This document shows, in pieces, positions 20,602 to 23,691 of a stretch of 64,000 bases of DNA (position 1 is the stretch's first letter; each line of letters starts with the position of its first letter). The notes under the pieces are model-generated. The model was given only the letters and a program-made list of their open reading frames with translations, did not search any database and was not told the origin of the DNA. Location of the stretch: NCBI RefSeq assembly GCF_056746865.1, contig NZ_CM163382.1; one strand, written 5' to 3'. The translations under genes were made by a program, and so were the position numbers.

Positions 20602-20834
20602 TGAGATCCCGTTATTTTTATCAATTTTTGTTGCTATCCGATCGCAAAAAAGCCACGTCATATGATCAGATAATTCTGATAATGATAGACGCTATTTAAC
20701 ACTTCACACGGTTTGTATACGGAAAAGCATTTTGCTTTTTGTATTCAATTTAGACAGAATTTTATTAATCATTTCAGGGTAATGGGGTGATGAGATGTTG
20801 CGTAACAGGGCCAGAAGGCTAGACTACAAAATAA

Positions 20835-21839
<1,005 letters not shown>

Positions 21840-21885
21840 CAAAAGAAATTTTCCCAGCTGTCTGTATACAAAAACGCCGCAAAGT

Positions 21886-21899
21886 TTGAGCGAAGTCAA
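21886..21899. promoter_or_regulatory. FNR binding site of the fnrS promoter
   Basis: TTGAG-cgaa-GTCAA dyad centred about 42 bp upstream of the fnrS 5' end (class II position). Confidence 0.7.
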
Positions 21900-21934
21900 T
21901 AAACTCTCTACCCATTCAGGGCAATATCTCTCTT

Positions 21935-22056
21935 GCAGGTGAATGCAACGTCAAGCGATGGGCGTTGCGCTCCATATTGTCTTACTTCCTTTTTTGAATT
22001 ACTGCATAGCACAATTGATTCGTACGACGCCGACTTTGATGAGTCGGCTTTTTTTT
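21935..22056 (+). ncRNA. fnrS: FnrS small regulatory RNA
   Basis: sequence gcaggtgaatgcaacgtcaagcgatgggcg...cgccgactttgatgagtcggcttttttttt matches FnrS as I recall it, with an intrinsic terminator at the 3' end. Confidence 0.88.
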
Positions 22057-22114
22057 TGCCTGTTATTTATCAGCGTCTACCCTTTAAGAGTCCACCCAAT
22101 GACCGGAGGGAAAT

Positions 22115-22288
22115 ATGACGACACTTATTTATTTGCAAATTCCTGTCCCTGAACCGATTCCTGGCGATCCTGTTCCAGTGCCCGATCCGATCCCTCGCCC
22201 GCAACCCATGCCTGACCCACCACCCGATGAAGAACCGATTAAATTGTCGCATCGTGAGCGTAGATCTGCGAGGATACGCGCCTGCTGA
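22115..22288 (+). CDS. Proline-rich small ORF (57 aa) immediately upstream of dbpA; hypothetical
   Basis: ATG preceded by GGAGGG at 5-nt spacing; translation MTTLIYLQIPVPEPIPGDPVPVPDPIPRPQPMPDPPPDEEPIKLSHRERRSARIRAC; below the 60-aa cut-off of the ORF track. Confidence 0.4.
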   Translation: MTTLIYLQIPVPEPIPGDPVPVPDPIPRPQPMPDPPPDEEPIKLSHRERRSARIRAC

Positions 22289-22317
22289 CTTTGCGTCGAT
22301 GACCACGAGAATAGATT

Positions 22318-23691
22318 GTGACCGCTTTTTCTACCCTGAATGTTTTGCCTCCCGCCCAACTCACGAACCTTGATGAGTTGGGTTATTTAACCATGACGCC
22401 GGTGCAGGCCGCCGCGCTTCCGGCGATCCTTGCCGGAAAAGATGTTCGCGTGCAGGCGAAAACCGGCAGCGGCAAAACGGCGGCTTTTGGCCTCGGCTTG
22501 TTACAGCAAATTGATGCGTCGCTATTTCAAACCCAGGCTTTAGTGCTGTGTCCTACGCGTGAACTGGCGGATCAGGTGGCAGGTGAATTGCGTCGGCTGG
22601 CGCGTTTTCTGCCAAATACCAAAATTTTGACGTTGTGCGGTGGTCAACCGTTCGGTATGCAGCGTGATTCGTTGCAACATGCGCCGCATATTATCGTGGC
22701 AACGCCGGGCCGTTTGTTGGATCATCTGCAAAAAGGCACGGTATCACTGGATGCGTTGAATACGCTGGTGATGGATGAGGCCGATCGCATGCTGGATATG
22801 GGATTTAGCGATGCCATTGATGATGTCATCCGTTTTGCGCCTGCATCTCGACAGACGCTTCTGTTTTCGGCAACCTGGCCGGAAGCCATCGCCGCAATCA
22901 GCGGACGAGTGCAACGCGATCCTTTAGCGATTGAAATTGACTCAACAGATGCTCTGCCACCTATTGAACAACAATTTTATGAGACATCCAGCAAAGGCAA
23001 AATTCCGTTGTTGCAAAGGTTATTAAGTTTGCATCAGCCATCCTCTTGCGTGGTGTTTTGCAATACCAAAAAAGATTGCCAGGCTGTCTGCGACGCGCTG
23101 AATGAAGTAGGGCAAAGTGCATTGTCGTTACACGGCGATCTGGAGCAACGTGATCGCGATCAGACCCTGGTACGTTTTGCTAACGGTAGCGCCCGTGTAC
23201 TGGTTGCGACTGATGTTGCTGCTCGAGGTCTGGATATTAAATCGCTTGAGCTGGTGGTGAACTTTGAGCTGGCGTGGGATCCTGAAGTTCATGTACATCG
23301 CATCGGTCGTACAGCGCGTGCAGGAAATAGCGGTCTGGCGATCAGTTTCTGTGCCCCGGAAGAAGCACAGCGGGCCAATATCATTTCTGACATGTTGCAG
23401 ATAAAACTTAACTGGCAAACGCCGCCAGTTAATAGTTCCATTGTGCCGCTGGAAGCCGAAATGGCAACGTTATGTATCGATGGCGGGAAAAAAGCCAAAA
23501 TGCGCCCGGGTGATGTATTAGGTGCGCTGACAGGAGATATCGGGCTTGATGGCGCAGATATTGGCAAAATCGCCGTGCATCCGGCGCATGTCTATGTCGC
23601 GGTGCGTCAGGCTGTTGCTCATAAAGCATGGAAACAGTTACAGGGCGGGAAGATTAAAGGAAAAACGTGCCGGGTGCGGTTATTAAAATAA
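22318..23691 (+). CDS. dbpA: ATP-dependent DEAD-box RNA helicase DbpA (23S rRNA-specific), 457 aa
   Basis: GTG start; Walker A AKTGSGKT, DEAD box (VMDEAD), SAT motif. Confidence 0.92.
   Translation: MTAFSTLNVLPPAQLTNLDELGYLTMTPVQAAALPAILAGKDVRVQAKTGSGKTAAFGLGLLQQIDASLFQTQALVLCPTRELADQVAGELRRLARFLPNTKILTLCGGQPFGMQRDSLQHAPHIIVATPGRLLDHLQKGTVSLDALNTLVMDEADRMLDMGFSDAIDDVIRFAPASRQTLLFSATWPEAIAAISGRVQRDPLAIEIDSTDALPPIEQQFYETSSKGKIPLLQRLLSLHQPSSCVVFCNTKKDCQAVCDALNEVGQSALSLHGDLEQRDRDQTLVRFANGSARVLVATDVAARGLDIKSLELVVNFELAWDPEVHVHRIGRTARAGNSGLAISFCAPEEAQRANIISDMLQIKLNWQTPPVNSSIVPLEAEMATLCIDGGKKAKMRPGDVLGALTGDIGLDGADIGKIAVHPAHVYVAVRQAVAHKAWKQLQGGKIKGKTCRVRLLK

Follow-up and report, generated by a model that had tools for sequence, protein, structure and literature searches.

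An fnrS-linked small-protein gene of Escherichia coli, ynaL, and selection on the proline-rich core of its product

Identity of the ynaL reading frame

The window, a stretch of 64 000 nucleotides from contig NZ_CM163382.1 (assembly GCF_056746865.1), carries the small gene ynaL at positions 22115–22288 of the plus strand. ynaL is already known: it is annotated, it belongs to a Pfam family and its product was detected experimentally in 2018. Taking all the comparisons reported below jointly, we consider it moderately probable that ynaL is a real protein-coding gene with independent expression and that the selected product is the peptide itself.

The reading frame begins with ATG at 22115 and ends with TGA at 22286–22288 (57 codons plus stop), and its translation is exactly MTTLIYLQIPVPEPIPGDPVPVPDPIPRPQPMPDPPPDEEPIKLSHRERRSARIRAC. 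The first-pass annotation of the window, made from the letters alone, had described a proline-rich frame of 57 codons here, with an identical translation. It had placed this frame between fnrS and dbpA, in agreement with the positions of fnrS upstream (21935–22052) and of the dbpA GTG downstream (22318). It had also put the end of the frame 30 bp before that GTG; the adjacency holds and the distance is in fact 29 nt. A GGAGGG Shine–Dalgarno motif, likewise recorded at first pass, is present at 22105–22110 (plus strand), 4–5 nt ahead of the ATG. The listed orthologues mostly carry motifs of the GGAG/GGAGG type (GGAGG, GGAG, GAGG, AGGA), and a few have AAGG or GGGAG.

The RefSeq product of this interval (WP_001296046.1) is labelled ‘proline-rich small protein YnaL’, and the ynaL-bearing stretch is found in 5392 of 5426 complete E. 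coli genomes. The Pfam model PF23677 (‘Protein YnaL-like’) matches the product over model positions 1–57 of 57 (E = 2.2e-40, 136.8 bits), and all 120 of the YnaL homologues listed carry this domain. A search of the NCBIfam profiles gave no YnaL-specific model; the matches were compositional (TonB, internalin and similar) and far below the cut-offs.

VanOrsdel et al. (2018, PMC6001520) detected an identical 57-residue protein of E. coli K-12 by chromosomal SPA-tagging and immunoblotting, and tetracycline ribosome profiling was positive for it in the same study. YnaL-SPA was seen in ordinary LB cultures, and the tagged protein builds up at full length in vivo (PMC6001520). The reading frame in the window has the same sequence and the same ‘fnrS / dbpA > > >’ place as in Table 1 of that paper, which gives 1409308–1409481 as the K-12 coordinates of ynaL and whose authors suggested that ynaL and dbpA form an operon. 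Among the papers searched for ynaL, this report alone (main text) was relevant, and a search of them for data on ynaL expression conditions, transcription start, rpoS or efp found none. The suggestion made at first pass that the frame encodes a genuine small protein is thus borne out by the RefSeq entry, PF23677, SPA-tag detection and the codon-level selection in the core described below.

Association with fnrS and gene neighbourhood

The conserved upstream neighbour of ynaL is the small RNA gene fnrS (plus strand; full-length match to Rfam RF01796, 134.8 bits). The terminator scan places its intrinsic terminator at 22029–22057 (plus strand); this has an 8-bp stem with five GC pairs, a 4-nt loop and a run of nine T (T9), and it is conserved in the alignment. 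An fnrS seed, an anchor that is independent of ynaL, was used to collect at least 120 loci. In all 107 loci listed, zntB lies upstream of fnrS. A ynaL frame is found downstream of the anchor in at least 93 loci other than that of the window (about 90 related species, an exact match to the 22-nt seed being required), and these orthologous frames constitute the comparison set. The median spacer after the terminator T-run is 58 nt, and the spacer between fnrS and ynaL measures 50–69 nt in 85 of the 96 loci listed. The adjacency holds across Enterobacteriaceae and Erwiniaceae; among the loci listed, those of Serratia, Hafnia, Edwardsiella, Dickeya, Brenneria and Lonsdalea have no ynaL beside fnrS.

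Downstream, two arrangements are found. dbpA follows ynaL directly in at least 43 loci (type A). In type B loci, the frame is followed by a hairpin (at least 44 loci) and there is no dbpA alongside; among those listed, the next gene is a convergent ttcA in 35 (81–92% identity) and a ttcA-like gene on the plus strand in six. The comparison of loci therefore shows that ynaL travels with fnrS, some 58 nt after its terminator, and not with dbpA, and that in at least about 40 species it has the layout of a stand-alone gene closed by a terminator-like hairpin.

Even where dbpA is adjacent, the position of the ynaL stop varies: it lies roughly 30 to 60 nt ahead of dbpA or, in K. oxytoca, overlaps it, and nine type A species have early stops. 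Kluyvera has lost the frame and kept dbpA together with the conserved DNA upstream of it; ynaL is dispensable in Kluyvera. The proteins of Pantoea, Erwinia, Cedecea and Buttiauxella match PF23677, a model built around the E. coli-type sequence, over the core only (model positions 12–41; 14 of 20 at E ≤ 1e-3) and have a different tail.

Coding constraint and structure of the peptide

Conservation and codon-substitution analysis across relatives had been proposed at first pass as a check on the frame. It reveals coding constraint in the core (a dN/dS of about 0.1, with values above 2 when the frame is shifted), and this result does not extend to the last 15 codons, for which the ratio is 0.89. 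All dN/dS values given here are pooled pairwise values without phylogenetic correction. Substitutions among the 93 listed orthologues show a 3-base periodicity, and indels in the core are in-frame only.

The first 12 codons (22115–22150, plus strand) form a variable N-terminal segment, with pN of 0.53 and dN/dS of 0.41 among type A sequences. Codons 13–42 (EPIPGDPVPVPDPIPRPQPMPDPPPDEEPI; 22151–22240, plus strand) encode the proline-rich acidic core of about 30 residues, whose consensus among the listed orthologues is …DPxPxPDPIPRPQPxPDPPP…. Here dN/dS in frame is 0.10–0.14 (0.136 overall, 0.097 in type A and 0.114 in type B), compared with 2.2–6.2 in shifted frames; the type B tail has a similar value, 0.106. 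Entropy at the three codon positions of the core is 0.72, 0.67 and 1.64 bits, 2.4 times higher at the third. All four CCN codons are used at the invariant prolines of the listed orthologues, and one conserved serine is encoded by AGY in some orthologues and by TCN in others. In the window, the RNA of the core is C-rich, with a GC skew of −0.40. The conserved positions of the core also include residues that are neither proline nor acidic (I, R, Q, V/T). These substitution patterns show strong purifying selection at the amino-acid level on the core in Enterobacteriaceae and Erwiniaceae.

That the frame is a chance or non-coding feature, conserved through an RNA or DNA function only, is hardly conceivable. 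Such a reading fits the last 15 codons, which have no coding signature, and nothing else: for the core it is refuted by the periodicity, by the frame-specific dN/dS, by the in-frame indels and by the experimental detection of the protein (PMC6001520).

The AlphaFold model of YnaL is an extended chain with no secondary structure (pLDDT 85–94 in the core, pTM 0.23). A PDB sequence search with YnaL returned nothing at E ≤ 1.

Predicted promoter of ynaL

A standard σ70 promoter scan of positions 21700–22500 gave no sites, and the candidate promoter motifs emerged only from comparative alignment. The predicted −35 element, TTGCCT (22056–22061, plus strand), overlaps the end of the fnrS T-run. The predicted extended −10 element is TCTACCCTTTA (22076–22086, plus strand), which is σS-like; its hexamer TACCCT (22078–22083) agrees with TATAAT at just three of six positions in E. 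coli.

These elements keep their positions across the loci. TTGCCT, TTGCCA or TTGGCT stands 16–18 nt upstream of a −10-like hexamer in 61 of the 85 loci listed, and TAnnCT is found 28–33 nt ahead of the ATG in 85 of the 93 listed loci, compared with 18 per cent of shuffles. Where insertions lengthen the spacer, a new TTGCCA or TTGGCT occurs at the correct spacing. The σS extended −10 consensus, quoted in PMC5650638 from Weber (2005) as KCTAYRCTTAA, agrees in this quoted form with TCTACCCTTTA at nine of 11 positions. At least nine of the 11 are matched at a fixed distance from the ATG in 83 per cent of the 93 listed loci, against 3.8 per cent of shuffles, and C(−13) is present in 89 of the 93. 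The alignment thus indicates that ynaL probably has its own σS-type promoter behind the fnrS terminator. Transcription from it would start near 22088–22092. Given such a promoter and the strong Shine–Dalgarno motif, good expression would be expected in stationary phase or under stress.

Alternatively, ynaL might have no promoter of its own and depend on transcription that passes through the fnrS terminator; fnrS–ynaL would then in effect be a bifunctional, FNR-activated anaerobic transcript. The short distance from the fnrS T-run to the ATG and the persistence of the adjacency in two families are consistent with this. The strength of the terminator, the positionally conserved −35/−10 pair in the spacer, re-created where insertions lengthen it, and the detection of YnaL-SPA in ordinary LB cultures all oppose it, and we regard read-through as distinctly unlikely.

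The ynaL tail and the predicted dbpA promoter region

Codons 43–57 of E. coli ynaL (‘tail A’, KLSHRERRSARIRAC; 22241–22285, plus strand) are translated, and they are conserved as DNA and not as protein. In this tail pN is 0.129 and pS is 0.145, with no frame preference; the pS of the core in the same genomes is 0.59, four times higher. The nine type A species with early stops end the frame before the tail, and Kluyvera retains the tail sequence without the frame.

Two blocks stand out in this region. The first, CCGATTAAATTGTCGC (22235–22250, plus strand), is nearly invariant in 41 type A species and lies at −48 to −33 from the predicted transcription start of dbpA. The second, AGATCTGCGAGGATACGCGCC (22262–22282, plus strand), is also invariant and is the predicted core promoter of dbpA, with TG at 22267–22268, the hexamer GAGGAT at 22270–22275 and a GC-rich discriminator, ACGCGCC, at 22276–22282. 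GAGGAT is a poor −10 hexamer, with G at −12. In seven loci where dbpA lies elsewhere, this block aligns in register with CTGC-TAnnnT-GCGCGCC, which stands at the same distance (42–45 nt) ahead of dbpA. We infer that in E. coli ynaL the final 15 codons are constrained as dbpA promoter DNA and not as protein. Transcription from this predicted promoter would start near 22282–22285, at about the ynaL stop codon, and dbpA mRNAs initiated there would therefore lack the ynaL frame.

The dbpA gene itself, coding for an ATP-dependent RNA helicase (22318–23691, plus strand; RefSeq and the list of open reading frames), has a conserved GTG start. Its ribosome-binding site had been called weak at first pass, and rightly so: only a conserved Shine–Dalgarno-like cGAGA (22306–22310, plus strand) precedes the GTG.

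An RNA element in the ynaL tail and the dbpA 5′ region was considered and rejected. The single-sequence fold is no better than that of shuffles (z = 0.11), the alignment fold of 28 species reaches −3.9 kcal/mol with no covarying pairs, and between 21000 and 23000 Rfam finds only fnrS at E ≤ 1. The terminator scan gave no plus-strand terminator between ynaL and dbpA. The tail words UCGUGAG and UACGCG were likened by eye to the 23S rRNA sequence around helix 92, the target of DbpA; this likeness was dismissed as chance, because UCGUGAG lies where the alignment is variable and because so short a match is to be expected. The invariant blocks were also compared by eye with the consensus of a CsrA-type GGA hairpin and of σE, σ28 and σ54 promoters, and none of these agrees in spacing or consensus.

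Polyproline motifs and the possible control of dbpA

Codons 35–37 of ynaL (CCA CCA CCC; 22217–22225, plus strand) encode PPP within DPPPD. By the definition of ‘strong’ EF-P motifs as quoted in PMC11162784, PP[PWDNG] or [PDA]PP, residues 34–38 (DPPPD) hold three overlapping strong motifs (DPP, PPP and PPD). Judging from DPPPD, EF-P is probably needed for efficient synthesis of YnaL. Such a need would be a property of the YnaL protein and not evidence of a sensor role.

PPP occurs somewhere in 81 of the 93 listed orthologues and is missing in 12; PP occurs in 88. Proline is found at the three columns aligned with PPP in 91/93, 83/93 and 65/92 of them, respectively. PP is wholly missing in E. 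albertii, the closest relative among the loci listed, and in two Citrobacter species. PP dipeptides are rarer than composition predicts (2.9 versus 5.3 per peptide).

The first-pass annotation had also raised the possibility of a regulatory upstream frame coupling dbpA translation to translational status. In this model, EF-P-dependent pausing at PPP would set the arrival of ribosomes at the ynaL stop, 29 nt ahead of the weak start of dbpA, or would set Rho termination ahead of dbpA, and DbpA would follow translational status. Several facts speak for it: the operon suggested by VanOrsdel et al. (PMC6001520), the short gap without a terminator in E. coli, the dbpA GTG with only cGAGA ahead of it, the three EF-P motifs, and the C-rich, G-poor RNA of the frame (GC skew −0.40), a composition favoured by Rho. 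When ribosomes stall in a first cistron, the genes behind it can be subject to polarity; EF-P maintains the coupling of transcription and translation, and when it is lost, polyproline stalls are followed by termination of both the Rho-dependent and the intrinsic kind (Elgamal et al. 2016, PMC5021804).

Against these stand the equal conservation of the core where no dbpA follows, the Kluyvera loci that keep dbpA and its upstream DNA without the frame, the variable distance from stop to GTG, the orthologues without PPP (E. albertii having no PP at all), the absence of a conserved RNA structure linking the frame to dbpA, and the predicted dbpA promoter in the 3′ end of ynaL, whose mRNAs would lack the frame. 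A leader peptide would be expected to keep its target gene behind it on one transcript, and no such gene is conserved; nor were alternative RNA structures, a terminator or a sequestered ribosome-binding site found between the frame and a target. Coupling to dbpA is thus not supported as the reason for the frame, and we consider it unlikely. Read-through transcripts may still give ynaL a secondary effect on dbpA in particular lineages.

EF-P-dependent polyproline proteins such as CadC share the strong XPPX motifs of YnaL. They differ from YnaL in that PPP is not universal in its family, and dbpA apparently has its own promoter.

Comparison with leader peptides and other small proteins

The MgtL leader of mgtA (Salmonella and E. 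coli) resembles YnaL in being a short frame of alternating proline and acidic residues (EPDPTP, compared with PEPIPGDPVPVPDP… and DPDP in YnaL), and it is the closest precedent for the idea that translating such a frame reports translational status. MgtL has 17 residues and lies within a long structured leader, and its downstream gene is controlled through alternative RNA structures. YnaL, in contrast, has 44–65 residues, of which about 30 are conserved, and is followed by no structured RNA and often by no downstream gene.

Intrinsic ribosome destabilization (IRD) is expected where prolines stand among acidic residues early in the chain, with three or more D/E/P per 6-residue window. By inspection, every such window of residues 10–41 of E. 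coli YnaL has three or more D/E/P; the motif starts at residue 10 and not directly after the initiator Met. The core is the kind of hard-to-translate sequence used by leader peptides (mgtL EPDPTP, yagN DPDPEPE), and a role in cis for its translation may therefore exist.

In the strongest form of this idea, ynaL would be a cis-acting sensor of the MgtL type. Stalled or abortive translation of the core (in response to Mg2+, EF-P or prolyl-tRNA) would serve as the signal and would decide what becomes of the ynaL transcript itself, or of transcription into a neighbouring promoter or terminator, the peptide being a by-product. The resemblance of the core and type B tail motifs to the IRD sequences of mgtL and yagN (reviewed in PMC12856214), the early position of the motif (about residue 10–13) and the presence of PPP or PP in most listed orthologues favour it. 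Type B transcripts, however, have nothing downstream to regulate, only a hairpin and then a convergent ttcA; the 30 or so residues selected at dN/dS of about 0.1, including I, R, Q and V/T, are more than stalling needs; PP dipeptides are under-represented; and tagged YnaL builds up at full length in vivo. We find this sensor rather improbable.

A more elaborate version seems very unlikely. In it the core, acidic, interrupted by prolines and containing DPPPD, would be kept for deliberately hard translation, serving to gauge the status of ribosomes, EF-P or Mg2+. The E. coli clade would have connected this gauge to ribosome biogenesis: transcription that begins at the σS-type ynaL promoter would cross the dbpA core promoter in the 3′ end of ynaL and, depending on the passage of ribosomes through the core, continue into dbpA or be cut by Rho on the C-rich RNA.

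Two further comparisons concern the peptide and its locus. The proline-rich spacer of TonB, a protein of 239 residues, resembles YnaL in its alternating X-Pro acidic/basic repeats and its predicted extended rod. The matches of YnaL to TonB models are weak and compositional (NCBIfam NF008084, E = 2.9e-4, far below the curated cut-off; Pfam TonB_N, E = 0.75). Homology was rejected: the TonB segment is a linker in a membrane protein, whereas YnaL is a whole protein without a membrane anchor. Small RNA loci that also encode small proteins include SgrS/SgrT and Spot 42/SpfP. As in these, the ynaL gene is tightly tied to the gene of a conserved Hfq-dependent small RNA; unlike SgrT and SpfP, it lies after the fnrS terminator, not inside the small RNA, and apparently has its own promoter.

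Proposed history and significance

Under the preferred explanation, an independently expressed gene selected for its peptide, YnaL would be an extended, polyproline-II-like, non-globular acidic peptide acting in trans by binding a partner. Action in trans is suggested by the selection pattern and the stand-alone layout of the gene. In the clade of Escherichia, Salmonella, Citrobacter, Enterobacter and Klebsiella, dbpA, together with a promoter region of its own, would have come to lie directly behind the core, replacing the ancestral tail (…DPDPxPIIDPPPH) and terminator. With the dbpA promoter region in this position, the final 15 codons of the E. coli protein would be read through the dbpA core promoter.

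The de novo detection of a small-protein gene at positions 22115–22288 was correct, and the gene is real, but it is not a discovery. What the comparison adds is that YnaL is no oddity of E. coli: it is order-wide and linked to fnrS, with a selected acidic polyproline core of about 30 residues. The C-terminus of the E. coli protein appears to be an evolutionary by-product of the dbpA promoter region placed behind this core. For functional work, the core and not the tail is the part to delete or tag, and changing the last 15 codons, by mutation or by a C-terminal tag, will probably disturb the expression of dbpA. The promoter predicted for dbpA is discriminator-rich, as one would expect for a gene of ribosome biogenesis.

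The ynaL gene and its surroundings

The ORF between fnrS and dbpA runs on the plus strand from an ATG at 22115 to a TGA at 22286–22288 (57 codons; translation MTTLIYLQIPVPEPIPGDPVPVPDPIPRPQPMPDPPPDEEPIKLSHRERRSARIRAC), behind a GGAGGG Shine–Dalgarno sequence (22105–22110). On its 5′ side lies fnrS (21935–22052; Rfam RF01796, 134.8 bits), for which the terminator scan returned 22029–22057; on its 3′ side the GTG start of dbpA follows at 22318, 29 nt past the ynaL stop, with a conserved cGAGA as the sole Shine–Dalgarno-like element. The first-pass annotation had described the position and length of the ORF, its GGAGGG and the weak dbpA ribosome-binding site accurately. The window is E. coli DNA. 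Along 551 nt the sequence around the ORF matches strain 118UI with 100% identity, and the ORF-bearing stretch was found in 5392 of 5426 complete E. coli genomes. Another short ORF (15 codons, 20795–20842, plus strand), directly 5′ of zntB, is the RefSeq 'protein YnaN' (gene label ydaN).

RefSeq names the ORF ynaL ('proline-rich small protein YnaL', WP_001296046.1), Pfam family PF23677 matches it over positions 1–57 (E = 2.2e-40), and name and domain are common to homologues of Citrobacter, Salmonella, Enterobacter, Klebsiella, Kosakonia, Leclercia and Raoultella. The identical 57-aa protein was detected by chromosomal SPA-tagging and immunoblot (VanOrsdel et al. 2018, PMC6001520); as noted there, a tetracycline ribosome-profiling screen was also positive. 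The ORF had been read as either a genuine small protein or a regulatory leader of dbpA with an EF-P-dependent pause; the small-protein half of this reading is therefore established. ynaL is an already known gene, and the checks first proposed for it have largely been done by others. Among the papers searched, ynaL is treated only by VanOrsdel et al. 2018 (PMC6001520), who raised a possible operon with dbpA.

Orthologues and coding constraint

One genome per species was scanned with an exact 22-nt fnrS seed, without bias toward the ORF, giving at least 120 loci; the sample depends on this seed, and all locus counts are among the matches listed. In these, zntB lies 5′ of fnrS in 107 of the 107 loci with enough flank, and 93 usable loci carry a YnaL-like ORF with an ATG, at a median of 58 nt past the fnrS T-run and mostly behind a GGAG/GGAGG-type Shine–Dalgarno sequence. 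The genera include Escherichia, Citrobacter, Salmonella, Enterobacter, Klebsiella, Kosakonia, Lelliottia, Pantoea, Erwinia, Mixta, Cedecea, Buttiauxella, Pluralibacter, Siccibacter, Mangrovibacter and, at greater distance from fnrS, Pectobacterium. No YnaL-like ORF was found beside fnrS in the listed Serratia, Hafnia, Edwardsiella, Dickeya, Brenneria and Lonsdalea loci. In three Pectobacterium loci (L027, L029, L067) and one of Acerihabitans (L007) the ORF lies about 130–530 nt, not about 58 nt, past the T-run, and the sequence is more divergent (…VEPIPIIPNDPTPRPLPDPPPIPDPPPTGPEHEP…), which points to inserted DNA separating ynaL from fnrS in Pectobacteriaceae.

Codon alignment of the 93 listed orthologues gave entropies of 0.72, 0.67 and 1.64 bits at codon positions 1, 2 and 3. 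All four CCN codons are used at invariant prolines, and both AGY and TCN at one conserved serine. The proline-rich acidic core (codons 13–42, 22151–22240; consensus …S-D-P-x-P-T-D-P-V-P-x-P-D-P-I-P-R-P-Q-P-x-P-D-P-P-P…P-I) is under coding constraint, with a dN/dS (pooled pairwise Nei–Gojobori values) of 0.136 in frame versus 2.2 and 3.4 in shifted frames. Two types of 3′ tail follow the core. Tail B (…DPDPxPIIDPPPH[RM]; dN/dS 0.106) also evolves as protein. The E. coli-type tail A (codons 43–57, KLSHRERRSARIRAC, 22241–22285) lacks coding constraint: pN is 0.129 and pS 0.145 (ratio 0.89, no frame preference), and the core of these same genomes shows four times the synonymous divergence. Tail A is therefore conserved as nucleotides. 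This is in line with the stop ahead of tail A in nine of the listed type A species, with Klebsiella oxytoca (L061), where the stop is lost and an 84-codon ORF overlaps the dbpA start, and with E. coli E69 (L063), where an in-frame 33-nt core deletion (equivalent to about 22145–22180) leaves a 46-aa product. The deletion looks like slippage between repeated CCTGT(C/G)CC(T/C)GA(A/T)CCGAT(T/C)CCT units (PVPEPIP, PVPDPIP).

Linkage to fnrS rather than dbpA

Among the loci listed, dbpA lies 3′ of the ORF in 43, every one of type A. The 44 listed type B loci have a GC-rich hairpin within a few tens of bases 3′ of the ORF, followed in 35 of them by a convergent ttcA (81–92% identity); here ynaL is a stand-alone gene with a core as constrained as in E. 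coli. A subset of type B, from Erwinia (L103, L094, L047, L050, L075, L017), has a plus-strand ttcA-like gene in place of the convergent one (297 aa where complete, 65–70% identity to E. coli TtcA), possibly a ttcA paralogue in a differing local gene order. In the three loci long enough (L094, L103 and also L031), dbpA lies about 1.3–1.6 kb past fnrS.

Three Kluyvera species (L036, L078, L098) carry a deletion of about 150–170 nt that includes the predicted ynaL promoter, Shine–Dalgarno sequence, ATG and core, and keep fnrS, the tail A nucleotides and dbpA. This natural knockout shows ynaL to be dispensable for keeping dbpA. With the core equally constrained where dbpA is not adjacent, a role as dbpA leader is not supported; ynaL belongs with fnrS. 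In the simplest history, the ancestral order would have been zntB, fnrS, ynaL, terminator and convergent ttcA; dbpA, together with its upstream region, would then have been placed behind the core in the Escherichia-to-Klebsiella clade, replacing the old tail and terminator.

Predicted promoters

All promoter statements, for ynaL and dbpA alike, are drawn from conservation. The 58-nt spacer contains TTTTTTTTGCCt and, 16–18 nt further on, tCTAcCCTtaaag. TAnnCT occurs 28–33 nt 5′ of the ATG in 85 of the 93 listed loci (18% of shuffles), with a correctly spaced TTGCCT, TTGCCA or TTGGCT in 61 of the 85, including loci with an insertion-lengthened spacer. In 83% of listed loci, versus 3.8% of shuffles, at least 9 of 11 positions agree with KCTAYRCTTAA, the consensus for σS extended −10 elements (Weber 2005, as quoted in PMC5650638); the predicted ynaL element TCTACCCTTTA (22076–22086) matches 9 of 11. 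A standard σ70 scan of the region found no site. Probably, ynaL has its own σS-type promoter. The predicted −35, TTGCCT (22056–22061), overlaps the terminal T residues of the fnrS terminator (22049–22057), a conserved arrangement; there could be mutual interference between ynaL initiation and the transcription or termination of fnrS.

Two blocks, CCGATTAAAnTGTCGC (block 1, 22235–22250) and AGATCTGnGAGGATACGCGCC (block 2, 22262–22282), are nearly invariant in 41 species, and both persist in Kluyvera. RNA structure was rejected for both (single-sequence fold z = 0.11; alignment fold without a covarying pair). In seven listed loci where dbpA lies elsewhere (L074, L094, L031, L103, L092, L090, L117), CTGC-TAnnnT-GCGCGCC precedes dbpA by about 45 nt, versus 42 in type A, with the hexamers TAGAAT, TAATAT, TACACT (three times), TAAACT and TAGCAT; automatic alignment places it in register with type A TCTGC-GAGGAT-ACGCGCC. 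Block 2 is thus the predicted dbpA core promoter, with a GC-rich discriminator (GCGCGCC/ACGCGCC) behind an extended −10 (TGn), and this arrangement appears conserved across Enterobacterales. The E. coli-clade hexamer GAGGAT is non-canonical, with G at −12, yet invariant in the 41 species. Transcription would start at about 22282–22285, at the ynaL stop codon, and these mRNAs would lack the ynaL ORF. Block 1, at −48 to −33 from this predicted start, may be a UP element, a −35 or a regulator site. GC-rich discriminators are characteristic of promoters under growth-rate and ppGpp (stringent) control, such as rrnB P1, and one of this type is plausible for dbpA as a ribosome-biogenesis helicase.

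The YnaL peptide

AlphaFold with 38 orthologues predicted no secondary structure (pTM 0.23) and pLDDT of 85–94 along the core only, which in the model means an extended, locally stiff chain. The N-terminus is variable among orthologues, and inspection of their alignment revealed no signal peptide or membrane-length hydrophobic segment. A PDB sequence search found no relative; kinship with TonB was rejected, the matches being compositional.

Under the published definition of strong EF-P motifs, DPPPD holds three, and EF-P is therefore likely to assist YnaL synthesis. A sensor role for the motif is weakened: PPP is absent from 12 of the 93 listed orthologues, PP itself is missing from five (E. 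albertii and two Citrobacter species among them), and PP dipeptides are rarer than composition predicts (2.9 versus 5.3 per peptide), the build being alternating X-Pro. The core resembles the 'proline-intermitted acidic' intrinsic ribosome destabilization sequences of mgtL (EPDPTP) and yagN (DPDPEPE), EF-P loss can give Rho-dependent polarity past polyproline stalls (PMC5021804), and the ORF RNA is C-rich (GC skew −0.40). For these reasons, transcripts reading through into dbpA may be subject to a cis effect in particular lineages, although the comparative evidence lends it no support.

The initial interpretation was thus half right: the protein is real and the dbpA leader is not supported. 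On balance we favour, with some reserve, a composite model in which YnaL, expressed from a σS-type promoter, would act in trans as an extended acidic peptide and bind a partner. To the known gene the analysis adds its linkage to fnrS in two families, a mosaic of conserved core and putatively promoter-derived tail, and two predicted promoters.
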